Below the pieces are notes generated by a model, which was given only the letters and a program-made list of their open reading frames with translations, searched no databases and was not told where the DNA came from. The translations under genes and the position numbers were made by a program. This document shows, piece after piece, positions 26,416 through 64,000 of a DNA stretch of 64,000 nucleotides. Every line of letters starts with the position of its first letter. The first letter of the stretch is position 1. Origin of the DNA: Candidatus Ryanbacteria bacterium RIFCSPLOWO2_12_FULL_44_26 (GTDB lineage: Bacteria; Patescibacteriota; Minisyncoccia; Ryanbacterales; HO2-45-13); contig MHOA01000001.1 in assembly GCA_001821765.1 (NCBI GenBank), forward strand, positions 1,580 through 65,579, read 5' to 3'.

Positions 26416-27195
26416 ATGAACACACGTACTCTTTTATCATGGAACGTAAACGGCATTCGGGCCATTGAGCGCAAGGGCTTTTTGGATTGGTTTTTGAACA
26501 GCGGAGGTGATATTGTTGCTCTTCAGGAAACGAAGGTATCTGATTTTTCATCACTGAGCGATACACTTCAGCATCCGGCTGGATTTCATGCGTATTGGAA
26601 TTCTTGCGTTGAAAAGAAAGGGTATAGCGGCGTTGTTGTTTATACCAAGATTGAGCCGCGGAGGGTGAAGACTGATTTCGGAGATAATTTTCTTTCTCAA
26701 GAAGGAAGGATGATTGAGTGTGATTTTGGGACGTTTGTTTTGCTTAATGCTTATTTCCCAAACGGCGGATCGGGAGAGAAACGACTGCAATATAAACTTA
26801 CGTTCTACAATCAGTTTCTTCCGTATGTGAAAGAACTGGCAAAGTCCGGCAGACACGTTATCTTTTGCGGAGATGTAAACACCGCGCATAAGGAAATTGA
26901 CCTCGCGCGCCCAAAAGAAAACAAAAATAATACAGGTTTTTTGCCGATAGAGCGGAAGTGGATAGACGATGTTATAAATGCCGGTTTTATTGATACTTTT
27001 AGAATGTTTAACAGTGAAGGGGGATATTACACGTACTGGGATCTCAAAACGTTCGCTCGTGATAGAAATGTCGGGTGGCGCATTGATTATTTTTTTGCCA
27101 GTGAATCGCTTAAGAGTCGGGTTAAGGATGCGTTTATTGCGGCGGATGTTTTGGGATCGGACCATTGCCCGATCGGCATTATAATCAACGTTTAA
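26416..27195 (+). CDS. xth: Exodeoxyribonuclease III (AP endonuclease, EEP family)
   Basis: LLSWNVNGIR, QETK, FCGDVNTAH, WRIDYFF, SDHCPI. Confidence 0.85.
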   Translation: MNTRTLLSWNVNGIRAIERKGFLDWFLNSGGDIVALQETKVSDFSSLSDTLQHPAGFHAYWNSCVEKKGYSGVVVYTKIEPRRVKTDFGDNFLSQEGRMIECDFGTFVLLNAYFPNGGSGEKRLQYKLTFYNQFLPYVKELAKSGRHVIFCGDVNTAHKEIDLARPKENKNNTGFLPIERKWIDDVINAGFIDTFRMFNSEGGYYTYWDLKTFARDRNVGWRIDYFFASESLKSRVKDAFIAADVLGSDHCPIGIIINV

Positions 27196-50741: not shown

Positions 50742-53441
50742 ATGTTACCCTTTTCGAATTTTACAATAAAAGCGCAGGAAGCTCTTAAAAAAGCTCATGA
50801 GCTTGCTGTTGAGCGCGGGCAGGGATCGCTGGATGCCATGTATCTGCTTGCAGCTCTTTTACTGCAGGAAGAAGGTGTTATTATTTCACTGGTAGAGAAG
50901 CTCGGGATTGATTATCAATCATTTGCGGACTACGTCCTTGATGCGCTTGATGCGAGGAAGAGTCAACAACTCCTCACGCCCCCGTCGCAGTTTTATATCA
51001 CTCCGGAACTAGCCCGTGTGCTGGAAGAAGCGCATAGAGCCGCTATTTCCTTAAAAGATGAATATATTTCAACGGAACATCTGTTTCTCGCGTTTCTTGA
51101 GACTCCCTCAAAGGCGCGTGACATTCTTGATCGGTTTCATATTGATAAAGAGTCGGTTTTGCAGGTTCTTGCAAGTATCCGGGGCGCTCAGCGTGTAACC
51201 GACGTTGAGCCGGAAAGCAAATATCAGGTTCTTGAAAAATATGCCAGAAATCTGACGCGTCTTGCGCGCGAAGATAAACTTGACCCTGTTATTGGCAGAG
51301 ATACGGAAATTCGCCGTGTCATGCAGGTGCTTTCGCGACGGACAAAAAACAACCCCGTTCTTATAGGAGAAGCAGGGGTCGGGAAAACAGCCATTGTGGA
51401 AGGGCTTGCCCAGCGCGTTGTGTCAGGAAGCGTTCCGGAGAGTCTTCGCGATCATGAGCTTGTTGCTCTGGATCTTGGTGCGCTTGTTGCGGGCACGAAG
51501 TATCGCGGAGAATTTGAAGAACGATTGAAAGCTGTTCTTAGAGAAATTCATCGTGAAGGCAGCAGGATATTATTGTTTATTGACGAGCTGCACACGCTGG
51601 TAGGCGCAGGGTCGGCGGAAGGCGCTATGGACGCTTCTAACATGCTCAAACCCGCGCTTGGAAGGGGAGAACTTCATGCGATCGGCGCCACGACGATAAA
51701 AGAATATCAAAGACACATTGAAAAAGATCCTGCTCTTGCGCGCCGCTTTCAGCCCGTATATGTGGATGAGCCCTCTCCTGAAGATACCGTTGCTATCCTT
51801 TTGGGGTTGAAAGAAAAATACGAGGTGTTTCATGGAATTAAGATAACCAATGAAGCCATTCAAAAAGCGGTGGAGTTGTCTCGGAGATATATTACTGACA
51901 GATTTCTTCCGGATAAAGCCATTGATCTTATTGATGAAGCCGCATCAGCGCTTCGGCTTGAGATTGACAGTGTACCGCGTGATTTGGATGATGTTCGCCA
52001 AGAAATCATGAAATTGGAGATTGAACGGGAGGCGATGAAGCGCGATGAGGGAAGCAAAAACAGCCGCCGGCTGCGTGTTATTGTGCGGCAGCTTGCTGAA
52101 CTGCATGAGAAAAACAAATCCATTGAACTAAAGTGGAAAAACGAGAAAGACACAATTGTCCACATTAGAGAACTCAAGAAAGATTTCGAGAAGTTGCGGA
52201 TGGAGTCTGAAAGTGCGGAGCGCGCTTCAGATTTTACGAAAGTGGCGGAGATTCGTTATTCACGAATGCCGGAGCTTTCAAAACAGCTCAGAGAAGGAGA
52301 GAAACGCCTCAGAAGATTACAAGCATACAGAAAGATTTTAAAAGAGGAAATTGGAGAGGAGGAAATTGCCGAGGTTGTTTCCCGATGGACGGGCGTACCG
52401 GTAAAACGCATGCTTGAAGAAGAAGCAAAAAAACTGCTTAAAATGGAGGACGCGCTTAAGAAACGTATTGTAGGGCAGGATGAAGCTATAAAAGAAATTT
52501 CACATGCGGTAAGGCGGAGCCGCGCCGGCATTAATGAAGAGGATCATCCGATCGGTTCTTTTATATTTCTTGGAGCAAGTGGTGTGGGGAAAACTGAACT
52601 GGGCCGCGCGCTTGCCGAATTTATGTTTAATGATGGAAAAGCGCTTATCCGAGTTGATATGTCCGAGTACATGGAACGGCATACGGTTTCAAAGTTTATC
52701 GGTTCTCCTCCGGGTTATGTCGGGCATGAAGAGGGAGGTCAGTTAACAGAACTTATTCGTCATAGGCCCTATGCTGTTGTGCTTTTTGACGAGATTGAAA
52801 AAGCACACCCGGAAGTGTTTAACATTATGCTTCAAATTCTGGATAACGGCCGCTTAACGGACGCAAAAGGAAGACATGTCAACTTTAAAAATACCATCAT
52901 TATCATGACTTCTAATATTGGCTCCGAGCTTGTAAGAGAAGCCGGATCTATCGGGTTTGATTTGTCTACTGGGGAGAAGGAAGCGAGGCAGTTAAAATCA
53001 AAAGAAGAGGAACTGAAGTCAAAGATTCACAAGCAGCTTGAATCGCATTTCAGGCCGGAGTTCTTAAATCGCCTTGATTCGATAATCATATTTAACAACC
53101 TTTCCAAGGAACATATTCTTGCAATTGTTGATATTCAGCTTGCGCATGTACAGAAACGCCTTGACCAAAAAGAAATAATGTTGGTTGTTGAAAAGAATGT
53201 AAAAGAATTTTTGGCTCGCGAGGGATATAACCCTCAATATGGTGCAAGGCCGCTGAAAAGATTTATTCAAAACAAAATTCTCAATCCTCTTGCCGAAAAA
53301 ATGGTTTCAAAGGAAATACAGGAGGGAGACAGGGTACGCCTGACTGTTAAAGATGAGAGTATTGTATTTGAATATACGCATCGCGTAAGCACTGATAAGA
53401 AGAAAGGAAAGCGAAAAACCGCAACCTCTACCATAAGGTAA
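50742..53441 (+). CDS. clpB: Chaperone ClpB (two AAA+ modules with coiled-coil M-domain)
   Basis: Clp_N repeats, [15 protein letters not shown], long middle domain, second Walker [12 protein letters not shown]. Confidence 0.9.
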
Positions 53442-53503
53442 ATACATAAGGTATAATACACTCTATAGTTTGCTTTGCGTTAGTTCGCATTTATAGCATA
53501 CAT

Positions 53504-53532
53504 GCGTCGGTGGCGGAGTGGACAATCGCACC
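53504..53532 (+). repeat. 29-nt exact copy of the 5' end of the downstream tRNA-Tyr gene (acceptor 5' strand + D-arm)
   Basis: Identical to 53797-53825; immediately followed by hairpin CCCCGC-TATAA-GCGGGG. Confidence 0.7.
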
Positions 53533-53558
53533 CCGCTATAAGCGGGGCGGCCTTATAT

Positions 53559-53834
53559 ATGTGGTATGTTTATATTCTTAAGAGTAAAAAGGATAATAAA
53601 TATTATATTGGATGTACATCAGATTTAGATAAACGTCTTGTTCGTCATAATAAAGGAGGCAATAAATCTACTAAAAACAGGAAACCGCTTGAGCTTATTC
53701 ACCGTGAGTTATATGATGATAAACATCAAGCTCTAGCCAGAGAACGAAAGATAAAAAGTTATAAGGGTGGTGATGAGTTTAAGAGGTTAATATCAGGCGT
53801 CGGTGGCGGAGTGGACAATCGCACCAGACTGTAA
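53559..53834 (+). CDS. Small GIY-YIG nuclease-domain protein (COG2827/YhbQ-like); stop codon lies in the tRNA-Tyr anticodon loop
   Basis: WYVYIL...YYIGCT...R..H...ERKIKSYKG GIY-YIG motifs; ORF runs into tRNA-Tyr. Confidence 0.6.
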   Translation: MWYVYILKSKKDNKYYIGCTSDLDKRLVRHNKGGNKSTKNRKPLELIHRELYDDKHQALARERKIKSYKGGDEFKRLISGVGGGVDNRTRL

Positions 53835-53883
53835 ATCTGGCGGCCTCAGGCCTACGCAGGTTCGAATCCTGCCCGGCGCACCA
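53797..53883 (+). tRNA. tRNA-Tyr (anticodon GUA), long variable arm, CCA encoded
   Basis: GCGTCGG/CCGGCGC acceptor, CCAGA-CTGTAAA-TCTGG anticodon arm, GCAGG-TTCGAAT-CCTGC T-arm. Confidence 0.85.
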
Positions 53884-53922
53884 AGACACAACTCAATTCA
53901 GTTTCAGAGATTTTTTAATCAT

Positions 53923-54429
53923 ATGAATCCAGAAAAACCAAATTTCAATCCAGAACCTCCAAAAGAGGAAAATAAAGAAATCAAGGGTGATGGTTTTGTA
54001 ATGGGCGGTAAGGATAGAAAACCGTCTCGGTTTTCTAGTTTTTCCCATGATACTTCCGTAGAATTTCGACCAGGCGAAACCAACGAAGGAAAGATAAAAG
54101 CGAAAGAAGAAGCAATGAAAAAAGAAATTGAGCGCACTAAAAATTTCACTGACGCTGACTATGCCGAAGATTTGTTGAGTGGTATGCTCGAGACGAATAA
54201 TCCTTATTCGGAAACCTTTAAAATTAAACCTGATGGAAAATTTGATAAAATTTTGAGAGCAGATGGCGCTCCTGTTTATTTGGTGGCATATGGTGATACA
54301 CCGGCTGAACTTTACAAAATTGCAGCAGAGATAGAGAAGAAGCATCCGGAGTATTATTTTGCTTTCGAAACCGATCCGCAAGGACAGTGGATGAAATATA
54401 CGGTTTCGAAATCCGAAACTGAAAAATAA
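53923..54429 (+). CDS. Hypothetical protein (168 aa, Lys/Glu-rich)
   Basis: Internal Met after tRNA; no domain recognised. Confidence 0.4.
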   Translation: MNPEKPNFNPEPPKEENKEIKGDGFVMGGKDRKPSRFSSFSHDTSVEFRPGETNEGKIKAKEEAMKKEIERTKNFTDADYAEDLLSGMLETNNPYSETFKIKPDGKFDKILRADGAPVYLVAYGDTPAELYKIAAEIEKKHPEYYFAFETDPQGQWMKYTVSKSETEK

Positions 54430-54434
54430 ATTTG

Positions 54435-54616
54435 TATAATTTCATAATTAAATTGCCGCCAAAGAAAAACTTGTCCTTCGGCAGTGCTCAGGACAATCCT
54501 GAGTTTATCGAAGGATTGAAATTGTCGCCTCGTTTTGCGAGGCGAAAACCGCCAAAGAGCCCCGAGAAAAACATCGGCGCGAACCATATTTTAATTTTGG
54601 GGGAAGAAAATTTTTT
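54435..54616 (+). promoter_or_regulatory. Extended -10 promoter (TGTATAAT) plus ~150-nt structured leader, copy A of a duplicated element
   Basis: Shares ATAATTAAATTGCCGCC...AAAGAAAAACTTGT..TTCGGCAG...ATCCTGAGTTTATCGAAGGA..AATTGTC with 55580-55682. Confidence 0.5.
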
Positions 54617-55138
54617 ATGAATCCTACGCATACGCTTGATGAATTTTTAGACCTTGTTGATGAAAACGATAACGTCGTTGGTAAAAAAAAGCGGTCAGAA
54701 GTTTACGCAGAAAATCTTTCAAATTTCCGGGTAGTGAACGCTTTTGTTGTAAACTCTAAAGGAGAAGTTTGGATACCGAGGCGAGTCGCGAACAAGCGGA
54801 TATTTCCTTTGTGTTTGGATATGAGTATGGGCGGCCACGTTGAAAGCGGCGAGACATACGAGCAAACGCTGAAACGCGAGACACAGGAGGAATTGAATAT
54901 TGATACCGATAAAGCAGAAGTGCGTTTACTCGGCCATTTAACCCCGCAGAAAGACGGCGTTTCAGCGTATATGAACGTTTACGAGATAAAGATGGATGAA
55001 ACACCAAATTACAACAAAAGCGATTTTGTCGAGTATTTTTGGCTGACGCCAAAAGCACTTTTTGAACGAATTGCCAACGGCGAAAAGACAAAAGGTGATT
55101 TACCAAAACTTGTAAAGATTTTTTATGGAGACAAGTAG
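54617..55138 (+). CDS. NUDIX hydrolase
   Basis: Nudix box GGHVESGETYEQTLKRETQEELNI. Confidence 0.75.
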   Translation: MNPTHTLDEFLDLVDENDNVVGKKKRSEVYAENLSNFRVVNAFVVNSKGEVWIPRRVANKRIFPLCLDMSMGGHVESGETYEQTLKRETQEELNIDTDKAEVRLLGHLTPQKDGVSAYMNVYEIKMDETPNYNKSDFVEYFWLTPKALFERIANGEKTKGDLPKLVKIFYGDK

Positions 55139-55574
55139 TCAACCAACAAAAAGAGCATATGCGATTTACCATGTCGGTTTGAAAGTTCTTCTCAAAAAAG
55201 GAGATGAGTTTTTGTTTTTGACGGACGCCGTTGGCAAACATTTTGATTTGCCTGGAGGCCGCATAGACGATGTAGAGCATACTACTCCGCTTACCGAAGT
55301 TATCGCGCGAGAAGTCGGAGAAGAACTTGGCGAAGAAGTAAAATACAAGCTCGGCAAACCAGTTTTTCAATTTCGCCGACATTTTGAAAGTAAAGGGTTG
55401 CATATTTTTCTCACAGTTTACGAAGCAGAATATTTGTCCGGCGAAATCAAACTGTCTGCCGAGCATAGCGACCTCCAATGGGTAGATCCGAAAAAAGTTG
55501 ATTTGAAGGATGAACAATTTTTTCATAAGGAAGAATATCTTGCTTTCAAAAAGTATTTTGAAAATTTGGTTTGA
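55125..55574 (+). CDS. NUDIX hydrolase (second, tandem)
   Basis: Nudix box GGRIDDVEHTTPLTEVIAREVGEELG. Confidence 0.7.
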   Translation: METSSQPTKRAYAIYHVGLKVLLKKGDEFLFLTDAVGKHFDLPGGRIDDVEHTTPLTEVIAREVGEELGEEVKYKLGKPVFQFRRHFESKGLHIFLTVYEAEYLSGEIKLSAEHSDLQWVDPKKVDLKDEQFFHKEEYLAFKKYFENLV

Positions 55575-55579
55575 TTGCA

Positions 55580-55682
55580 TATAATTAAATGCCGCCACTT
55601 CGATAAACTCAGTGCAAGCAAAGAAAAACTTGTGGTTCGGCAGACTTACCATCCTGAGTTTATCGGAGGAAAATTGTCAGCG
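55580..55682 (+). promoter_or_regulatory. Copy B of duplicated TATAAT + structured leader element
   Basis: Same conserved blocks as copy A with a 23-nt insertion and compensatory stem changes (GTCCT/AGGAC vs GTGGT/ACCAT). Confidence 0.5.
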
Positions 55683-56127
55683 GTGCTGCTCCCCGCCTGC
55701 GCCGAGGCTTGGTTCGGCTTTACTCACCATAAGTCGCTCAGTGCAGGCCGCCGCATTTCTGAATTTTCGCGGGGGGATTTCCTCGCCCTTCGATTGACTC
55801 AGGGCGAAATGCCGAAGGTACTGAGGAACGAAGTATGTTCGGATTTTGTCAAACAAGCGCATATCAAAATGAATACCCAGATTTTTACTGGATATTCATT
55901 TTGATAAGTTTTCAGAAGGAAAGCCGTTTTCTACTCAAGTCCTCTTCGGCGGGGTAAAGAAGGCGGCCTCATAACAAACCGCGAGCTTTGTTATGGGATT
56001 TGCCGTATAAAAAGGTTTTTTTAACCTATGTTTAGGCACAATCTGCCATAGTCCTTTTTGAAAAGTTTTAGTATGCTAATAATAGCGTCGTTATCTATTT
56101 TTTATGGAACGTAGACAATAAAATAAA

Positions 56128-57258
56128 ATGTTTAGGGAAAAGAAAGGTAAGGGCAAGACGAAAATTAAAAAACTGTCAAAGCAGAAAAAACGGCCCCCAA
56201 AAAGAGCTCCCAAGAGCATTAAAAGAAAGACAGAAAAGAAAAAACAACCTGGCACGCCGGCTCTTGTAAGAGCAGTAGAAAATCCGATTATTCTGCCAAA
56301 ACCCGAACATCACTGGGAGGCATGGCAGACGTTTAACCCCGGAGTTATCTTGCTTGAAGATAAAATACATTTTCTCTATCGAGCAATCGGGGAAGACGGT
56401 ATCTCGCGTTTCGGATATGCTGTTTCCAGTGATGGATTTGCGATTGATGAGCGATTACCAAACCCAGTTTTCGAGCACCGCTTCACAAAGCCGGTGTTTA
56501 ATTTTTATTCTTTTGTTTCAGGAGGAAGTTTCGGGGGGAGCGAAGATCCGCGCATTGTTCAGGTAAACGGAGAAGATACATTATATATGACTTATACTGC
56601 TTGCGATGAAGGATTGAGAATGGCCTTGTCATCAATAAAAGTTAAGGACTTTTTACGGAAAAAGTGGACATGGGAATTGCCGGTTTTGATCTCGCCGCCC
56701 GGAGAACTTCATAAAAACTGGGTTATTTTCCCGGAAAAAATAAATGGGAAGTATGCTGTCTTGCACAGCATCAGCCCTGAAATATCCATCGCTTATCGCG
56801 ACAGTTTGGAATTTCAAGAAGGCGAATACATTTACAGTTTTTATAACGGCAATAATAGCCAAAGAAAAAATTGCTGGGATAGTTGGGTGCGGGGCGTTGG
56901 GGCGCCGCCGATTAAAACAAATAAAGGCTGGCTGTTGTTTTATCATGCCATCGATGAAAGCGACCCCGGCAAGTACAAGGTTGGCGCCATGCTTCTGGAT
57001 ATACATAATCCGGCTAAAATACTTTGCCGCTCTCAAGAACCAGTTCTGGAGCCGGAAAAAGATTATGAAAGCAACGGTTTTAAAGCGGGTGTTATATATG
57101 TATCCGGAGCGGCGGTGAAAAACGGAGAACTTTTGGTGTATTATGGCGCTTCGGATAGCTATATCAGTGTGGCCCACGCACCAGTAGAGGAATTTTTGAA
57201 CAGATTAATAAGTCAGGCCAAACCGAAACTCAAGGCAAAAACTCTAAAGGGAACATAA
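56128..57258 (+). CDS. GH130/DUF377-like beta-propeller glycosidase/phosphorylase-family protein with highly basic N-terminal tail
   Basis: ...EDPRIV...YMTYTA... pattern; N-terminal 45 aa K/R-rich. Confidence 0.5.
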   Translation: MFREKKGKGKTKIKKLSKQKKRPPKRAPKSIKRKTEKKKQPGTPALVRAVENPIILPKPEHHWEAWQTFNPGVILLEDKIHFLYRAIGEDGISRFGYAVSSDGFAIDERLPNPVFEHRFTKPVFNFYSFVSGGSFGGSEDPRIVQVNGEDTLYMTYTACDEGLRMALSSIKVKDFLRKKWTWELPVLISPPGELHKNWVIFPEKINGKYAVLHSISPEISIAYRDSLEFQEGEYIYSFYNGNNSQRKNCWDSWVRGVGAPPIKTNKGWLLFYHAIDESDPGKYKVGAMLLDIHNPAKILCRSQEPVLEPEKDYESNGFKAGVIYVSGAAVKNGELLVYYGASDSYISVAHAPVEEFLNRLISQAKPKLKAKTLKGT

Positions 57259-57259
57259 G

Positions 57260-59182
57260 ATGATTATTGAGCGCTTTAAGAAAAATCCGATACTCACGCC
57301 GGATAAAAATCAGTCTTGGGAAGCTGAGGCTGTTTTTAATGGTTGTCCTGTTCGGAAAGGAAATAATGTTTTTCTCCTTTATCGTGCCGTTTCTCTGATC
57401 CATTATCACACGTTGGCAAAAGCAAAACTCATGGTGTCTGATATCGGTATTGCCGAAAGCAAAGACGGGCTCAATTTTTATGACCGAAAACGGTTTATTT
57501 TTCCAGAGCACGAGTGGGAAAGGTTCGGTTGTGAAGATCCGCGAATAACAAAACTGGACAACAAATACTATATCTTTTATACCGCGCTTTCAAGCTGGCC
57601 TCCCCGAACGGAGCATATAAAAGTAGGACTTGCCATAAGCAAAGATTTAAAAACGATTGAAAAAAAACATCTTATAACCCCCTTCAACGCTAAAGCAATG
57701 GCTCTTTTTCCGGAAAAAATCAATGGCAAAATCTGGGCGGTTTTGACGGTGCACACTGATCGGCCGCCGGCAAAAATATGCCTTGTTTCTTTTCAAAGAG
57801 AAGAAGATATCTGGAATGAATCATATTGGAATAAATGGTATCAAAATTTTGATAAGTATTCTTTGCCGCTTCAACGCCGGCCGCAGGACCATATCGAAGT
57901 CGGCTCTCCGCCGATAAAAACAAAACATGGCTGGCTTTTATTTTATTCCTATATTTGGGATTATATTTCTCCCCGAAGGTCTTTTAGTATTGAAAGTGTA
58001 CTGCTGGATTTAAAAAATCCTTTTAAGATTATCGGAAAAACCGATTTCCCACTTCTTTCTCCTGAAGATTATTATGAAAAACACGGTATAGTGCCGAATG
58101 TCGTTTTTCCTTCCGGAGCGTTACTGAATAAAAATACGATCTCATTATATTATGGAGCCGCAGATACTACCTGTGCGGTTGCTTTTATTGATCTCCCCTC
58201 GCTTATTGATAAGTTTATAAAAAAACAAATCGTTCTGATAAAGCTTCGTCGAGCCAACATAAATCCAATCATCACGCCAAACAAAAATCATCCTTGGGAA
58301 GCAAAAGCGACATTCAACCCGGCGGCCATGTATCTTAAAGGAAAAGTTCACCTGCTTTATCGGGCAATGTCGGAAGATAACACTTCAGTGCTTGGTTATG
58401 CGACAAGTCGGGACGGCATTCACATAGATTATCGTTCTCCGGAGCCGGTTTATATTCCTCGGGAACAATTTGAACAAAAGCTTGAAAGGGGAGGAAATTC
58501 AGGCACGGAAGATCCGAGACTCGTAAAAATTGGGAGCAGAATTTATATGTTCTATACCGCCTTTGATGGGAAAAATCCGCCGCGAGTGGCTTTCACTTGG
58601 ATTAAAGAGCAGGATTTTTTAAACAAGAAGTGGGATTGGTCGCGTGCCATGCTTATCTCCGCTCCTGATTTGGATGATAAAGATGCAGCTATGTTTCCGG
58701 AAAAAATAAAAGGGCGGTACCTTATTATTCATCGCGTCGGCGACGATATTGATTTCTCTCATCATAAAACACTGGATTTTAACGGGACGAATTGGCTTGA
58801 AGAGTATCGCTGGATAATGCCGAGGAAAGGACGGTGGGATTCGAGAAAGGTTGGTGTTGCCGCTCCGCCGATAAAAACAAAGGCAGGCTGGCTTCTGCTC
58901 TATCACGGAATTTCAGAAGAAGACCAGTTTTATCGCGTAGGAGCGATATTAGTTGGTTTGCGTGATCCTGCAAAAATTATCTGTCGCACGGATTATCCGA
59001 TTTTTGAACCGGAAACTTCTTATGAAAAAGAAGGAGAGGTTTCAAATGTGGTATTTCCTTGTGGGGCGGCACTTATTGGCAAAAAACTTTTCGTATATTA
59101 CGGAGGAGCGGATAAAGTGGTTGGAGTGGCTACGGTGAATATTGATGAGCTTCTCGGTGTGCTTAAGGTATGTAAATGTTAG
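57260..59182 (+). CDS. Tandem double GH130/DUF377-like domain protein
   Basis: Two repeats of the same fold (EDPRIT..., EDPRLV...), 640 aa. Confidence 0.5.
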   Translation: MIIERFKKNPILTPDKNQSWEAEAVFNGCPVRKGNNVFLLYRAVSLIHYHTLAKAKLMVSDIGIAESKDGLNFYDRKRFIFPEHEWERFGCEDPRITKLDNKYYIFYTALSSWPPRTEHIKVGLAISKDLKTIEKKHLITPFNAKAMALFPEKINGKIWAVLTVHTDRPPAKICLVSFQREEDIWNESYWNKWYQNFDKYSLPLQRRPQDHIEVGSPPIKTKHGWLLFYSYIWDYISPRRSFSIESVLLDLKNPFKIIGKTDFPLLSPEDYYEKHGIVPNVVFPSGALLNKNTISLYYGAADTTCAVAFIDLPSLIDKFIKKQIVLIKLRRANINPIITPNKNHPWEAKATFNPAAMYLKGKVHLLYRAMSEDNTSVLGYATSRDGIHIDYRSPEPVYIPREQFEQKLERGGNSGTEDPRLVKIGSRIYMFYTAFDGKNPPRVAFTWIKEQDFLNKKWDWSRAMLISAPDLDDKDAAMFPEKIKGRYLIIHRVGDDIDFSHHKTLDFNGTNWLEEYRWIMPRKGRWDSRKVGVAAPPIKTKAGWLLLYHGISEEDQFYRVGAILVGLRDPAKIICRTDYPIFEPETSYEKEGEVSNVVFPCGAALIGKKLFVYYGGADKVVGVATVNIDELLGVLKVCKC

Positions 59183-59392
59183 CAGGCCTTAAAAAAGCAA
59201 TTGGAAAGTAAGTGGCGCGTAGAAACAAAAAGACCCGATTTGTTTCGACGGATCGATTCTTTTATTTTCACCTGTCAAAATATTTGACAAGCAAGATTAC
59301 TTGATATATACTTGAAGCAGATCATCTAGAATGAGAATACGGTATTCTCATTCTATTGCGCAATAAAACCGGGAACTTTAAGGAGTCCAAAG

Positions 59393-59698
59393 ATGGATGT
59401 ATGTACATATGGAAATGCAACTCGGGAAGGGACGTTGCTCTGTATCTTTCATACCTTGAACCTGAAGTTCTATCATGTGAAGATGAATTGGAACGGCGCT
59501 CCTTTTCAAGATAGCGTGTCTGTGTGCGGTCGCTTCTCCAATCTTGCGGAGTGCGATGGGAGTTGCACTGAATATGCCCGGCGCGAGTTTACGCTCGACG
59601 AAGCGGATGCGGAGGAACTCAAGAGAATGCTCGAGGATTACGAAGAAGATAAGCTTGACGCGCAGCTTCTCGCAACTGAGATTAAGGATGAGTTTTAG
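59393..59698 (+). CDS. Hypothetical acidic protein (101 aa), locally GC-rich
   Basis: AAGGAG RBS 7 nt upstream of ATG; followed by GCCCAA..TTGGGC hairpin. Confidence 0.45.
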   Translation: MDVCTYGNATREGTLLCIFHTLNLKFYHVKMNWNGAPFQDSVSVCGRFSNLAECDGSCTEYARREFTLDEADAEELKRMLEDYEEDKLDAQLLATEIKDEF

Positions 59699-59868
59699 TA
59701 CATTGTTAAAGTGGGGCCGAAATAGGCGGCTCAACAGGAAAAGTCTCCGATATTGGTTTGATCCCATATGGGAGATTTTGTCTTAAGCCCAAGTCTGATT
59801 TGGGCTTCTGCCAAAGCATTCAATACTCATTGAGCATTTTGGTAGAACTGGCATATTGAAACAAACAC

Positions 59869-59897
59869 TTGCAATCTTGCACGTATTGTGCTATGCT
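59869..59897 (+). promoter_or_regulatory. Sigma70-like promoter TTGCAA-17-TATGCT
   Basis: Read from sequence. Confidence 0.45.
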
Positions 59898-59903
59898 CAA
59901 CCT

Positions 59904-60171
59904 TGTCCGATGCTGGGAAGCTTACCGAGCCGGCAAAACTCAGCGCTTGAGGACAACAGATGCGCTCGGACCCTAGGGAAAATGGCGTTTCCCGGCCACT
60001 CTCGGGTAATGACAGGGATAGGTTCCGCAAGGAAAGCTGGCCCGAACGGAACCGAAAAGAAGAACAGCGGCCAATACACATGACCCCAGTGTGTAGGCGT
60101 CAAAAAAGCCGTGAAGGTATGGGGCCGCCCCCTCCGAACGCTAATGCTAGTAGGAGGGGGTTTTTCTTTTT
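59904..60171 (+). ncRNA. Candidate small RNA (~267 nt) from promoter to intrinsic terminator; contains an SRP-RNA domain-IV-like GNRA hairpin (possible long-form ffs)
   Basis: No plausible ORF; AGGUUCC-GCAA-GGAAAGCUGGCC at 60021-60043 resembles the SRP RNA AGGUCC-GGAA-GGAAGCAGCC; terminator CCCCCTCC...GGAGGGGG+T run at 60128-60171. Confidence 0.4.
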
Positions 60172-60262
60172 AATAAAGAGTTAAAAATTGTCGTTGGATG
60201 AAAAATTTGTTACTATGCTTATAGTTTTTTAGCGGGAGTAGTTCAGTTGCACCGCCACATTT

Positions 60263-60338
60263 GCCCAAGTAGCTCAGCTGGTAGAGCAACTCCATGGTAA
60301 GGAGTAGGTCAGCGGTTCAAGTCCGCTCTTGGGCTCCA
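60263..60338 (+). tRNA. tRNA-Thr (anticodon GGU), CCA encoded
   Basis: GCCCAAG/CTTGGGC acceptor, ACTCC-ATGGTAA-GGAGT anticodon arm, AGCGG-TTCAAGT-CCGCT T-arm. Confidence 0.85.
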
Positions 60339-60521
60339 GTTTTGTAGAAAAAGATACAGAAGCACCCAGAGCGTGGGACGCGCTTCGCGCGTCCCACCAA
60401 AAAATCGGTCTTTTGTCTGAAAATCGGATTCTGGAGTATATTTACGACCTCGCTAGAACCTATTTTATCAAAAATGCCTGACCAAAGGAAGCCGCCCCGC
60501 CGCCGCTCGCTAACGCTCGCC

Positions 60522-60605
60522 GCCAAGCAAAATACTCTTTACGATTTCGGATTTGCGCGCGCCACCAAAAAATTCTTCTAAAAAGAAAAGAGTATTTTGC
60601 TTGGC
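60522..60605. repeat. 19-bp perfect inverted repeat (GCCAAGCAAAATACTCTTT / AAAGAGTATTTTGCTTGGC) with 46-nt loop
   Basis: Read from sequence; lies in a GC-rich hairpin-dense region. Confidence 0.7.
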
Positions 60606-60727
60606 TCTGCTCTGAACGAGCAGGCGACGGGGCTGGCCTCTATTTTTGCTCGCGGGGGCAAGGCGTTTCCTCCCCCTCGCCCCCTCCACGCCTTGCCCGC
60701 TCGCCAAAAAAGTTGGGTGGGTTGGGA

Positions 60728-61198
60728 TCAAAACTGTTGCACGGCGGTTTTGAGAACCGCTTTGGTGGCGTCAGAGATGTTGGGCGTGTTGAACGCTTCA
60801 TCCGAGAGTGCTACCAAGTAATACGCTTGGTGTTCGCTGGGTTCCAGTTTGACCTCGTCGTCGGGAGCGGTTTCGACGAGAAAGTTAAACTGTCTCGTCT
60901 TTTTGCCGGAACCGGACGTATAGTCGAATGGACCGAGATACGCGAGGACCGTCGTGATGACAAGCCCTGTTTCTTCTTGAACTTCCCGAGCAAGCGCCGT
61001 GAGCAAGTCTTCACCTGCATCTACGGTACCGCTCGGAAGTTCGACGAGTCCGCCCATGAAGTCGGACGGAATGCGCTCGAGAAGAAGAAACTTGCCTTCC
61101 TTGCGGATTACCGCTCCAATGACCAGCTTTTGAATACCATCCTTTTGGGAATCGGTAACCAGTTGCTCGAGGGTGTTATGATCAACGTTTGACTGCAT
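60728..61198 (-). CDS. NUDIX hydrolase
   Basis: Nudix box GGLVELPSGTVDAGEDLLTALAREVQEETGL. Confidence 0.75.
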   Translation of the reverse strand: MQSNVDHNTLEQLVTDSQKDGIQKLVIGAVIRKEGKFLLLERIPSDFMGGLVELPSGTVDAGEDLLTALAREVQEETGLVITTVLAYLGPFDYTSGSGKKTRQFNFLVETAPDDEVKLEPSEHQAYYLVALSDEAFNTPNISDATKAVLKTAVQQF

Positions 61199-61224
61199 AG
61201 TTTTCCTTATTTAACAAAAGAGTT

Positions 61225-61824
61225 TTAAAAATCTTTAACCACTTTTTTCTTTACAAGCGTTTGATAGTGGTTTGGTTTTGCTCGTTTTAAGTATTCAATA
61301 ATTTTCCCTCGCGCTGGAGTTATTGTAAGATTCTGCGATTTTGCAAAATCCATTATCATTTCAATCGCGCTTTCAATTTCAGATTTATCGCTCACCAGCA
61401 ACTCAATCTCTGCAATGTTGTAGGTAAAGTCTTGAAAATCAACAATATCGAGGTCAATGATAAATAGTCCCTTTTTATATTTTCTTCGCGTAGTTTTACA
61501 AGTGCAAAACGGAAAATACCCCGCTTTTATTAAATCGTCCGCAAGGTTTTTATTTGGAAGCAGATTTAGGGCTCGTCTAATTTTCTGTTCATCTTCCAGC
61601 TCATCATATTGGTCAGCTAACCTTTCTACTCCATTGTGCAGAGGAAGTTTTAGCTCAAACACCCTATCACGAGAACGGAGCCATTTGTCTTGCGAAGTTA
61701 GTAGAAATTTTTCGGTATCATAGTAAATATCGCTAAAAACTCGCTCGCTCAAAAACTCAGCATCTTTTGTGAGCTGTTTTTTATCTTGTTCACTAAGAAT
61801 AAATTTTTTTTCCACTTCAATCAT
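61225..61824 (-). CDS. CYTH-domain protein (triphosphate tunnel metalloenzyme; CyaB/ThTPase-like)
   Basis: N-terminal IEVEKKF (ExExK) signature. Confidence 0.6.
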   Translation of the reverse strand: MIEVEKKFILSEQDKKQLTKDAEFLSERVFSDIYYDTEKFLLTSQDKWLRSRDRVFELKLPLHNGVERLADQYDELEDEQKIRRALNLLPNKNLADDLIKAGYFPFCTCKTTRRKYKKGLFIIDLDIVDFQDFTYNIAEIELLVSDKSEIESAIEMIMDFAKSQNLTITPARGKIIEYLKRAKPNHYQTLVKKKVVKDF

Positions 61825-62564
61825 AAACTTAATTGAGTAATAAGCGCGGAGTGGTCGCTTAGCTTTTGTAATCTTGGTTCATGAAGGTAAACCGAATTTT
61901 TTGTAGCGGGCAATAAGGCATTTGAAACAAAACAATGGTCATAACGGTATCCATCGCCCGTTTTTCCTACCCAGCTATATTCTTGCTTGGATGGATGCAG
62001 AAAACGCCACGCGTCGCTTAATTGATATTGCAGTAATTGAATATAAAAATTGTATTCCCAATTCTTGAAGAATGGGTAGCGTGGCCTATGATTGGGTTCA
62101 AGTACATTAAAATCTCCGCAAACAACGCGCATATTGTTTGAGTTTAATTTCTGGAGAGCACTCAAAAGAGCTTGTAAAAAAAGCTTCTTTCTTTTTATTT
62201 TTTCGTTGCTTACATCGCGAGAGGGGACATAAATACCCACAACTTCTATATTTTTACCAAAAAATGAAAATTTCCCGCACATAACCCGCGACGGGATAAA
62301 ATTCATATATTTAAGAGTCCCTCCCGATATAGGAATTTTGCTCACAATCATTGACCCATATTCTTTATGCTCAATATCAGGAAAGAGCACATGATACCCG
62401 TATGCCTCAAAATATTTTTTCAAAAACAAACATCCACGACTTGTTTTTATCTCGGTTAAAACAAAAATATCTTCTTTTCTTTTGCGAATCCATTCCGCTT
62501 GTTTGGCGGCGCGCTCAGGCGATGGGTTAGCTATATTCCAAGTAAAAATAGATAGGTTTTGCAT
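61821..62564 (-). CDS. Endonuclease/exonuclease/phosphatase (ExoIII-like) family protein
   Basis: WNIAN..., VLTEIK, CGDFN, SDHSAL motifs. Confidence 0.7.
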   Translation of the reverse strand: MQNLSIFTWNIANPSPERAAKQAEWIRKRKEDIFVLTEIKTSRGCLFLKKYFEAYGYHVLFPDIEHKEYGSMIVSKIPISGGTLKYMNFIPSRVMCGKFSFFGKNIEVVGIYVPSRDVSNEKIKRKKLFLQALLSALQKLNSNNMRVVCGDFNVLEPNHRPRYPFFKNWEYNFYIQLLQYQLSDAWRFLHPSKQEYSWVGKTGDGYRYDHCFVSNALLPATKNSVYLHEPRLQKLSDHSALITQLSL

Positions 62565-62584
62565 ATTACTTTAATCAATTTTAC

Positions 62585-62625
62585 CACAAAAAATCCCGCA
62601 GCAGAATACTTAAATCCTACTGCGG
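62585..62625 (-). terminator. Rho-independent terminator downstream of radical SAM gene
   Basis: CCCGCAG...CTGCGGG stem followed by ATTTTTTG on minus strand. Confidence 0.55.
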
Positions 62626-62632
62626 GTGCGTT

Positions 62633-63703
62633 TTACGGATTAACGATTGGGCATACCTCCGCGTCCACTTCCTCAATGCGTTTGCCCGAAGAAATGACTG
62701 CTGCGGGACACCCTTTGCCACACTCCGCGTTAAGACGACATCCTTCGCAAGTCGGATTGCCACCGAGACGATATCGCTCATGGAGCTTGTATTCATCAAG
62801 ACGGGTAGCAATATCGGCATCACGGAAGATGTTGCCAACAATGAACTCTTCCGCCTTGTGCTGGCTTTGCGGAGTCCGCGCCGCAAACACGAGATAGGGA
62901 CACACCGTGAGTTCGCCGAGAGTAAAGACATAGATGATGTTGCCCGCTTCGCATCCTGCGAGCGGCAACTTCTTTTCGTTCGGGAATCGGATGTAGACCA
63001 TTTCAACTTTGTCCGCAAACTGCAAAGTTGTGTTGGCGATCTGACGCATCACTTCATCGGGAGCTCCGAGCTTTCCCGTCGTCCTTACGCCCCTTCCCAT
63101 GGAGGAAAGCGGATTCATCAACATGTATGTCGCGCCGTTTTCCACCGCGAACTCGCAGAGCTTAGTGTATTCCTCAGCCTCAGCGAGGTTGTTGGGAGTC
63201 ACCAAAAGCCCTTGCAGCAAACCATATTTAGCCAATGCCTCAATGGTCGCGATGGTAGTTGCGAACGACGTTTTGTCGCCGCGAAACCTACCATGGCTTT
63301 CAGGAGAAAAGCCATCCAAGCTGACGTTGCAGTGCGCACCCAATTCCACGAGTTGTTTCATCTGATCTTCGCTAATGCGGGTTGCGTTTGTGCAGATGCC
63401 AACTTTCATACCAACATTTTTGTAGAGCGATACGATCTCGATGATATCCTGGTATGCGAATGGTTCGCCGCCGGTAAGCGTAACACTCACCACGCGGCAC
63501 TCTTTGAGACGCGGTACGAGGATGTCGCGGATACTCTCCAGCGACATGGTATCGCCGTATTGTCCAGCCGAGACGAAGCAATGCGCGCAATGTAGATTGC
63601 ACCATTCGGTAATCTGCACGAGCGCTTTCCGGTGCGGCGGCTGAACTGATGTGCGGAAGTAGCAGGACGCCATCTGGTTGGCGGAAATGATGGATTTTTT
63701 CAT
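62633..63703 (-). CDS. Radical SAM enzyme with C-terminal SPASM/twitch auxiliary cluster domain
   Basis: CNLHCAHCF (Cx3Cx2C) and C-terminal CEGCRLNAECGKGC...C cluster; GGAGG RBS; ATGA overlap with upstream kinase-like gene. Confidence 0.75.
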   Translation of the reverse strand: MKKSIISANQMASCYFRTSVQPPHRKALVQITEWCNLHCAHCFVSAGQYGDTMSLESIRDILVPRLKECRVVSVTLTGGEPFAYQDIIEIVSLYKNVGMKVGICTNATRISEDQMKQLVELGAHCNVSLDGFSPESHGRFRGDKTSFATTIATIEALAKYGLLQGLLVTPNNLAEAEEYTKLCEFAVENGATYMLMNPLSSMGRGVRTTGKLGAPDEVMRQIANTTLQFADKVEMVYIRFPNEKKLPLAGCEAGNIIYVFTLGELTVCPYLVFAARTPQSQHKAEEFIVGNIFRDADIATRLDEYKLHERYRLGGNPTCEGCRLNAECGKGCPAAVISSGKRIEEVDAEVCPIVNP

Positions 63704-64000
63704 GACACTTCCTCCTTCATGTTGAGTAGCTTTTGAATTTCAATCACAATGCATTCAGAAGTATCGCCAACAGGTTGTTTGTCATTCTCCAACAAGAGAA
63801 CATTAAACCCTTTTTGGACGATGAATTCTGCCGCTTCGCGGTAGAAACGCATCTCTTGTTCTCTCGTTTCTTCGCGTTCAAATCGACTTAGTTTTGTTCG
63901 CTCGATTGCGAGCCGTTGTCCGAGAATAGTGGGATCAGCGACGAGGATAACGCTTAAATCAGGAGCGAGAACTTGCGAGTTAATGCTCCAGATGAATTCA
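63701..64000 (-). CDS. P-loop nucleoside/nucleotide kinase-like protein (dTMP-kinase-like C-terminal region), 5' end beyond window
   Basis: Minus-strand frame open to window edge; C-term ...DPTILGQRLAIERTKLSRFEREETREQEMRFYREAAEF... typical of the lid/C-terminal helices of Tmk/dNK-type kinases. Confidence 0.4.

Follow-up and report, generated by a model that had tools for sequence, protein, structure and literature searches.

We identified a cassette of five minus-strand genes at the end of a 64,000-nucleotide stretch of Candidatus Ryanbacteria bacterium RIFCSPLOWO2_12_FULL_44_26 (contig MHOA01000001.1, positions 1,580 to 65,579; hereafter the window) as a lineage variant of an unnamed, widespread module. 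This module combines a radical S-adenosylmethionine (SAM) enzyme, a Tmk-like kinase and an exonuclease III (ExoIII)-like nuclease of the EEP family, and in this genome its kinase is freshly broken. The pairing of a radical SAM enzyme with a nucleotide kinase is known, its classic forms being viperin with CMPK2, itself a Tmk-family kinase, and prokaryotic viperin (pVip) with its kinase. What is new is the module, which is covered neither by curated models nor by the literature that we searched. The substrate of the radical SAM enzyme is probably a (deoxy)nucleotide. For the broader proposal, of a horizontally mobile unit of three to five genes that acts on deoxynucleotides and combines at its core a radical SAM enzyme with a kinase of the dTMP kinase family and with an ExoIII-like nuclease, we find the balance about even.

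Conservation and genomic contexts of the module

The association was counted in 90 non-redundant loci with sufficient flanking DNA. The EEP gene adjoins the radical SAM gene in all 90 of them and a Tmk-like kinase gene is adjacent in 87, the kinase of locus L114 sitting just outside the distance cut used for this count. Genes in high-GC loci were called with a GC3 filter; plain open reading frame (ORF) calling gave spurious antisense "conserved" ORFs. A trio present in 87/90 loci and in several phyla is an association far beyond chance. The loci span Patescibacteria, Saccharibacteria, Bipolaricaulota, Melainabacteria, Bacteroidota, Abditibacteria and Actinomycetes, and the tie between a radical SAM/SPASM enzyme and a nucleotide kinase, which an earlier note on this DNA had drawn from the window, is borne out by a pairing with Tmk and EEP that extends from bacteria of the candidate phyla radiation (CPR) to Actinomycetes and Firmicutes. 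The module is rare: a scan of 185,579 species genomes yielded no more than 271 stretches that match. For a copy on a Streptomyces plasmid, the independent PGAP annotation reads radical SAM protein, dTMP kinase, EEP family protein and MazG-like protein. A literature search found no paper on the radical SAM/Tmk/EEP triad, only the analogous thmABC and Ophion systems.

The common gene order is radical SAM, Tmk, EEP, with overlapping genes. The order of the window, in which Tmk precedes the radical SAM gene and EEP stands apart, is limited to five CPR loci: besides the window lineage, three relatives from Paceibacterota/Patescibacteria and a single Saccharibacteria genome have it. EEP is followed by a variable gene (NUDIX in 40 loci, MazG in 23, CYTH in 8, a deoxynucleoside kinase (dNK) in 1 and none in 16), in each case from a family that, like the HAD hydrolases described next, works on nucleotide phosphates. 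CYTH and NUDIX occur together in the window lineage only; they are lineage-specific occupants of a variable fourth slot and not part of the core. A divergent branch from gut Clostridia and metagenomes, 40-47% identical, keeps EEP together with Tmk, a HAD hydrolase or both. L185 has the gene of a 440-aa HAD hydrolase inserted between EEP and Tmk; L188-L191 lack Tmk and have a 433-aa HAD hydrolase after EEP.

Conservation of the radical SAM protein is remarkable, at 57-65% identity between members from CPR bacteria, Streptomyces, Pseudonocardiaceae, Abditibacteria and Melainabacteria and from a Ferruginibacter. Such identity over a GC range of 29% to 71%, together with a ratio of nonsynonymous to synonymous substitution rates (dN/dS) of 0.09, suits an invariant small-molecule substrate. 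Module GC content follows that of each host (mean difference 0.002) and therefore gives no signature of recent transfer. The nearest named relatives are Candidatus Paceibacterota/Pacebacteria genomes, and a radical SAM protein identical to that of the window is indexed in 46 blocks of the contig collection; positions 52633-64000 of the window are 100% identical to the metagenome contigs L001, L006 and L007.

The genes around the module are highly variable, 437 of 470 flank-gene clusters being singletons. Several contexts are rich in defence and mobile genes. One holds an OLD-TOPRIM and UvrD pair (Gabija-like), an SLFN_AlbA_2 protein and an integrase; another, three integrases and a Schlafen-type helicase; further ones, a TIR_2 and a STAND-like protein, or an MmeI-like restriction-modification enzyme with GmrSD and VapBC. 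In one locus the module lies downstream of a GATase/SIS (GlmS-like) gene alongside an RVT_1/HD-CE protein, and the same site in another locus carries HamA and a DEAD helicase (Hachiman-like). A sample of 150 flank genes contained MADS genes, a type I methyltransferase, integrases and Imm1, and Streptomyces contexts include prophage-like genes, Lsr2 and XRE/DUF397 pairs. One module copy lies on a Streptomyces linear plasmid, and the module also occurs at the edges of prophages. Family members were found on four IMG/VR contigs and in two PLSDB records, one of them a 5.7-Mb Embleya replicon; GenBank phage records held no member of the radical SAM family.

Additional genes accompany the module in particular lineages. 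In a groundwater locus (L110:838-2690) the genes immediately upstream encode a flavodoxin-like FMN reductase and a fusion of thioredoxin with ferredoxin-thioredoxin reductase, which might donate electrons to the radical SAM enzyme. L029 (4754-5812) and about 34 Pseudonocardiaceae loci have a divergent LysR-type regulator ahead of the operon. In Streptomyces, a small Cys-rich (CxxC...CxxC) ORF of 61-90 aa was observed upstream in L064 (5723-5905) and in eight other loci.

Enzymes of the cassette

The radical SAM protein of the window carries its CxxxCxxC motif at C35/39/42 and the seven-cysteine SPASM motif CX9-15GX4C...CX2CX5CX3C...C over residues 251-351, a regular expression that also matches 56 of 57 close family members. 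The SPASM auxiliary-cluster domain proposed in the earlier note thus holds by its cysteines, although the Pfam SPASM model gave no match at E<=0.01. In the gut-Clostridia branch (P0131/P0272; L185-L194) the CX2CX5CX3C half of the motif is lost and the twitch-like first half kept, while the module persists, which suggests by motif comparison that the second auxiliary cluster may not be essential to the shared chemistry.

Searches with NCBIfam, Pfam, PADLOC and PDB (sequence and fold) gave only superfamily-level or sub-cutoff matches to curated families. The best NCBIfam match, StsB, reaches 101.9 bits against a cutoff of 625; MftC (84.2 vs 265), AlbA (63.6 vs 850) and PapB (61.3 vs 340) also stay below theirs, and no anSME model is among the best 25 matches. 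Assignment to a maturase family for ribosomally synthesized and post-translationally modified peptides (RiPPs), whether sactipeptide, ranthipeptide, mycofactocin or PQQ, was therefore rejected, as no NCBIfam cutoff was reached; nor did any housekeeping family exceed its cutoff. Prokaryotic viperin (NF038283) was likewise rejected at 58.7 bits against a cutoff of 180, with an alignment limited to the N-terminal core (residues 31-147), in agreement with the earlier statement that the enzyme does not have the viperin fold. The PADLOC pVip models match the radical SAM core weakly (5e-20, residues 30-142 only).

An AlphaFold model of the enzyme (pLDDT 81, with a poorly modelled C-terminal cluster region) has SkfB, BlsE, SuiB, CteB, DesII and anSME as fold neighbours. 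SkfB (2.6e-16) and BlsE (2e-15) are the top Foldseek matches and viperin structures rank 22nd or lower; a profile search against the PDB gave SkfB at 1.2e-23 and BlsE at 3.8e-16. BlsE acts on a nucleoside and DesII on a TDP-sugar. Identity to these SPASM/twitch enzymes is only 13-22%. The module enzyme resembles these proteins (BlsE, DesII, SkfB, SuiB, CteB, anSME) in its fold and auxiliary-cluster region, and differs from them in having no RiPP recognition element (RRE) or other N-terminal substrate-recognition domain and in an invariant N-terminal motif of its own, S-C-Y/F-F-R...P-x-R-K. The absence of an RRE follows from the fact that only about 30 residues precede CxxxCxxC. Among 57 aligned sequences, R25 and K26 are basic residues kept in all, R17, R141 and R204 are kept in at least 90%, and C14, C104 and C183 are extra invariant cysteines of the family. 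Scored among 1.84 billion representatives, full-length members reach at least 190 bits and the next radical SAM enzymes at most 112 bits. By these scores the family is sharply bounded and has no curated model, and the window protein is its founding member.

Intact homologues of the kinase reach the TIGR00041 dTMP kinase cutoff (104-106 bits vs 83) and keep GxxGxGK[ST], DRY and the thymine-pocket Q; their best solved matches are bacterial thymidylate kinases. In this genome, the upstream part of the gene is found at L001:9373-10004, about 0-630 nt beyond the window end on a contig identical to the window. There, the P-loop GPNGVGK and the remaining kinase protein lie in different frames owing to a +2 insertion directly after the P-loop (GGGAAAAGACTACC here vs GGGAAGACTACC in the intact relative L014; the frameshift site reads GGGAAAAGAC). 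The insertion is common to all independent assemblies, and relatives of 82-94% identity are intact. The lesion is recent, since the 94%-identical relative L112 has an intact kinase and the frameshifted remnant still shows a dN/dS of 0.12 against L014. The gene is, as far as its sequence goes, a recent pseudogene or a split gene, so that the radical SAM gene of this genome is coupled to a truncated ORF. Programmed frameshifting was weighed as an explanation and dismissed: slippage by -1 at GGGAAAAG would add an extra Lys to the P-loop, and the relatives have a plain in-frame gene. Elsewhere, the kinase of a Saccharibacteria relative (L096:8386-9000) carries an in-frame TGA, an independent inactivation, and L012, L028, L038, L186 and L188 have no kinase at all.

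The EEP nuclease belongs to the DNA-acting branch of exonuclease III, APE1 and LINE-1 endonuclease, with ExoIII as its best solved relative, and its catalytic residues N10, E38, D151, N153, D237 and H238 are invariant. With the TIGR00633 model (exodeoxyribonuclease III) it reaches 81.7 bits, below the cutoff of 99, and it is only 21% identical to the canonical xth product of the same window. As that canonical gene is present, the cassette nuclease is an extra, specialised and divergent paralogue. The CYTH protein has its ExExK motif as EVEKK at residues 3-7, and its best PDB match is mammalian thiamine triphosphatase (ThTPase; 3e-15, full length). In the NUDIX hydrolase the Nudix box GX5EX7REUXEEXGU is present as GTVDAGEDLLTALAREVQEETGL.

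In PADLOC-DB v2 no named anti-phage system was matched by the module components, and the matches obtained are partial or weak: the kinase to VakA (1e-5), a model whose description field is empty in the table, the NUDIX hydrolase to PDC-S07, and further matches to PDC-M51B (1e-9 to 2e-13). EEP, CYTH and MazG had no match in this database.

Architecture of the cassette in the window

Coordinates are collected in the table below. The minus-strand order of kinase, radical SAM, EEP, CYTH and NUDIX genes given in the earlier note was recovered for all five genes, as were the ATGA overlap of kinase stop and radical SAM start (63700-63703), the terminator of the radical SAM gene, which is GC-rich, and the nearby tRNA-Thr. 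The CYTH gene overlaps the EEP gene by 4 nt.

Features of the cassette and its surroundings (positions in the window).
Feature	Position	Strand	Evidence
NUDIX hydrolase	60728-61198	minus	PF00293, 58.9 bits vs cutoff 21.1; Nudix box intact
CYTH protein	61225-61824	minus	PF01928, 58.5 bits vs cutoff 23.2; ExExK motif
EEP nuclease	61821-62564	minus	PF03372, 58.6 bits
Intrinsic-terminator-like hairpin between radical SAM and EEP genes	62595-62626	minus	13-bp stem and U-run
Radical SAM enzyme, 356 aa	62633-63703	minus	PF04055, 84.8 bits
Tmk-like kinase, last 100 codons	63700-64000	minus	PF02223, 17.2 bits (low because only part of the gene is in the window); gene open at window end
GC-rich structured repeat, about 290 nt, at the downstream edge of the cassette	60432-60723		
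tRNA-Thr(GGT)	60263-60338		
Canonical exodeoxyribonuclease III, xth	26416-27195	plus	TIGR00633, 296 bits

The hairpin between the radical SAM and EEP genes has a fold z-score of -4.8. A hairpin with a U-run stands at the same junction in L014, L112, L015 and L018, the last with an unrelated sequence, and z-scores range from -4.8 to -7.9 in four of the five CPR loci. Because the hairpin is kept at this junction in five CPR loci, the module would run there as two transcription units, and the cassette is predicted to be split into Tmk-radical SAM and EEP-CYTH-NUDIX.

The cassette is bracketed by two copies of the structured repeat. The second copy, inverted and 70% identical to the first, is found some 0.5-0.8 kb beyond the end of the window, on the upstream side of the kinase (L001:8966-9253); no further copy was found within the 64-kb window. 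Long hairpins are kept in both copies despite their differing sequences, and the loop of one hairpin with a 10-bp stem has opposite orientation between them. The strain variants L004 and L005 carry the cassette at 99.4-99.8% identity, and homology stops inside the repeat (window 60433-60485), beyond which the neighbours differ, with LeuRS in one variant and NUDIX and methyltransferase genes in the other (L004:6113-7300, L005:6058-6600). The repeat is therefore a strain-level rearrangement hotspot. The suggestion of an island boundary at the tRNA was right in that synteny breaks between cassette and tRNA, and wrong about the breakpoint, which is the repeat. The GC contrast is slight (0.465 vs about 0.44).

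Just upstream of tRNA-Thr, a GC-rich intergenic stretch on the plus strand (59846-60172) ends in a strong hairpin with a U-run. Its fold z-score is only -2.0 and Rfam returned only the tRNA, the best other match being RAGATH-9 (18.9 bits, E=1.6). The stretch could represent a small RNA outside the known classes, or simply a terminator. Some 5 kb from the cassette lie two overlapping plus-strand NUDIX genes (54617-55138 and 55125-55574), followed by two GH130-family genes (56128-57258 and 57260-59182). The local density of NUDIX hydrolases is unusual.

Substrate, function and significance

The earlier note had described the cluster as one of nucleotide-acting enzymes and had left a peptide or RiPP, a sulfatase or a nucleotide as the substrate of the radical SAM enzyme. 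The first point is supported, every conserved partner being a nucleotide or DNA enzyme, and two partner families, Tmk and dNK, are deoxynucleotide-specific. On the second, a nucleotide is now favoured and the peptide and sulfatase options have lost ground: there is no RRE, no sulfatase in any annotated context and no clean anSME assignment, and a search for a precursor peptide in the 800 nt upstream gave no small ORF that different lineages share; what it did find were ORFs restricted to one lineage or artefacts antisense to the LysR gene.

The constant DNA nuclease, together with the near-constant thymidylate-kinase paralogue and phosphohydrolase, points to a new bioactive deoxynucleotide as the likely product. 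We consider it about as probable as its opposite that the module is a mobile one which modifies a deoxynucleotide by the logic of viperin and its kinase or of thmABC, in which case its role would probably be antiviral. Among the possible roles an anti-phage one appears the most likely, since the module recurs in defence islands. In such a system the kinase would supply a phosphorylated thymidine-type deoxynucleotide, from which the radical SAM enzyme would abstract a hydrogen and, using its auxiliary Fe-S cluster(s), produce a modified nucleotide that poisons DNA synthesis. The phosphohydrolase would then destroy the toxic triphosphate in the producer's own pool, as ThmC does, and the ExoIII-like nuclease might trim the analogue from 3' ends of host DNA or degrade stalled invader DNA. 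More specifically, and only tentatively, the family could be a new radical SAM system of antiviral defence whose product is a deoxynucleotide analogue directed at DNA, e.g. a sugar-modified dTTP, with built-in self-immunity. The auxiliary Fe-S cluster might serve here as an electron conduit or even, as in AbmM, as a sulfur donor, and self-immunity could come from ExoIII-like excision from host DNA and clearing of the pool by the phosphohydrolase.

Prokaryotic viperins convert NTPs to 3'-deoxy-3',4'-didehydro-NTPs and protect against phage. With viperin and pVip the module shares a radical SAM gene genetically coupled to a nucleotide kinase and an occurrence in defence islands, besides the weak matches of its radical SAM core to pVip and of its kinase to VakA. 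Unlike viperin, which has a single [4Fe-4S] cluster and a C-terminal nucleotide-binding extension and which ranks below SkfB, BlsE, SuiB and DesII in the fold search, the module enzyme has SPASM/twitch auxiliary-cluster cysteines. Its partners (dTMP kinase, dNK) point to deoxynucleotides and not to CTP, UTP or GTP, and the module has an obligatory ExoIII-like nuclease and a phosphohydrolase slot.

Non-viperin systems also offer parallels in gene content. The thmABC cluster of Photorhabdus asymbiotica (radical SAM enzyme, nucleoside kinase and nucleoside triphosphatase) makes 4'-thiothymidine, which after phosphorylation is incorporated into DNA and stops replication; for self-resistance ThmC is sufficient (PMC12691670). 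As summarised in the same source (PMC12691670), AbmM of the albomycin pathway, also a radical SAM enzyme, replaces the oxygen of the furanose with sulfur from its own cluster, and AbmG is the kinase. Set beside thmABC and AbmM by gene content only, the module likewise joins a radical SAM enzyme to a kinase for nucleosides or nucleotides and to a nucleoside triphosphatase. It also shares with thmABC a thymidine flavour, in a system whose product is toxic through DNA incorporation and whose triphosphatase protects the producer, and both move as a unit between genomes with different flanks. The differences are that ThmB is an AbmG-like nucleoside kinase and not a Tmk, that thmABC has no ExoIII-like nuclease, is reported only in Gammaproteobacteria and is described as an antibiotic cluster rather than a defence system. 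No representative of our radical SAM family begins with MYK+C, encoded by a primer in the supplement of PMC12691670. Ophion (OpnABC: radical SAM, PHP and PRTase) is a validated anti-jumbo-phage system (bioRxiv 10.1101/2025.09.30.679545). It too comprises three genes, for a non-viperin radical SAM enzyme, a phosphoesterase/nuclease-type protein and an enzyme of nucleotide metabolism, and it is experimentally protective, with a proposed action through modified nucleotides. It differs from the module in being found in Gammaproteobacteria and in its partners, a PHP domain protein and a phosphoribosyltransferase in place of EEP and Tmk.

Nonetheless, several observations weigh against an antiviral module. 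The defence association is guilt by association, drawn from about 12 contexts and the 150-gene sample without a genome-wide background, and the CPR copy in the window has ordinary flanks (a FecR-domain protein, GH130 enzymes and a tRNA). The comparison with thmABC, AbmM and Ophion is one of gene-content logic and not of sequence. Frameshifted here, interrupted by TGA in L096 and missing from five loci, the kinase is by this gene comparison the dispensable member of the trio. The LysR-type regulator of Pseudonocardiaceae is more typical of metabolic or stress operons. Moreover, NTP pyrophosphatases, ExoIII and Tmk are classical enzymes of sanitation, repair and salvage, so that a repair pathway fits too. 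In such "house-cleaning" the phosphohydrolase and nuclease would free thymidine-type nucleotides that are damaged or foreign, whether these sit in the pool or in DNA. They would be restored by the radical SAM enzyme, e.g. by two-electron oxidation of dihydrothymine to thymine, and the Tmk-like kinase would return dTMP to the pool. MutT-like NUDIX, MazG, ExoIII and Tmk all belong to families with these duties; SPASM/twitch enzymes such as anSME are dehydrogenases; CPR bacteria rely on nucleotide salvage, and two more NUDIX genes lie near the cassette; and the divergent LysR-type regulator also speaks for this explanation. It is at odds with the rarity of the module, its variable contexts and its defence and mobile neighbours, which are unlike housekeeping, with the canonical xth already in the organism and with the loss of the kinase in several lineages while the rest of the module stays. 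We therefore hold repair to be unlikely. The genes could alternatively form a secreted nucleoside antibiotic cluster, directed against competing bacteria with a thymidine analogue like 4'-thiothymidine, in which phosphohydrolase and nuclease would confer self-resistance. The parts list is the same as that of thmABC, whose triphosphatase is enough for resistance (PMC12691670). Streptomyces and Pseudonocardiaceae carry the module in abundance, including the copy on the linear plasmid, and one copy adjoins an Imm1 immunity protein. However, neither an exporter nor a final nucleotidase is linked to it with any consistency, its carriers include CPR bacteria with tiny genomes as well as gut Clostridia, where it lies within defence islands, and ThmA-type clusters are reported in Gammaproteobacteria only (PMC12691670), all of which makes this explanation rather unlikely.

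Two further alternatives depart from free nucleotides. A DNA-directed system, where the radical SAM enzyme would modify or damage DNA, either its own as an epigenetic mark or that of the invader as a lesion, and the ExoIII-like nuclease would cut there, would account for the nuclease being the invariant partner and a member of the AP-endonuclease branch, and for the pair that persists in the kinase-less loci L012, L028, L038, L186 and L188. It strikes us as improbable, given that no component has a DNA-binding or target-recognition domain and that free nucleotides are what the kinase and the NTP-hydrolase partners suggest. Very improbable is a maturase of RiPPs or proteins (sactipeptide-, ranthipeptide- or anSME-like) with nucleotide enzymes as incidental neighbours. 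In its favour are the likeness of the best NCBIfam and PDB matches to the peptide-modifying SPASM enzymes StsB, MftC, SkfB, SuiB and CteB, and the Cys-rich ORF of Streptomyces, which lies 270-740 nt upstream of the radical SAM gene in nine loci, several of which represent the same genome more than once. Yet the scores are far below cutoff (102 vs 625 and 84 vs 265), the short N-terminus has no RRE, and no small ORF is conserved across lineages; in CPR bacteria it is the kinase gene that overlaps the radical SAM start codon. The lack of a sulfatase in any context, the retention of the partners in 87-90 of 90 loci and an identity of 60% across phyla, atypical for RiPP maturases, argue in the same direction.

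Radical SAM enzymes that rewrite nucleotides have given antiviral chain terminators (viperin) and new antibiotics (4'-thiothymidine, albomycin). If the module is a defence system, it would be a second, mechanistically distinct radical SAM arm of bacterial immunity, and it would offer a ready-made pair of resistance and repair functions showing how producers escape self-poisoning. Should it make the DNA-directed analogue tentatively proposed above, it would be a deoxynucleotide counterpart of viperin with a distribution that takes in CPR bacteria, Streptomyces and gut Clostridia. That CPR bacteria have it in their reduced genomes suggests a function that is worth its cost even there.

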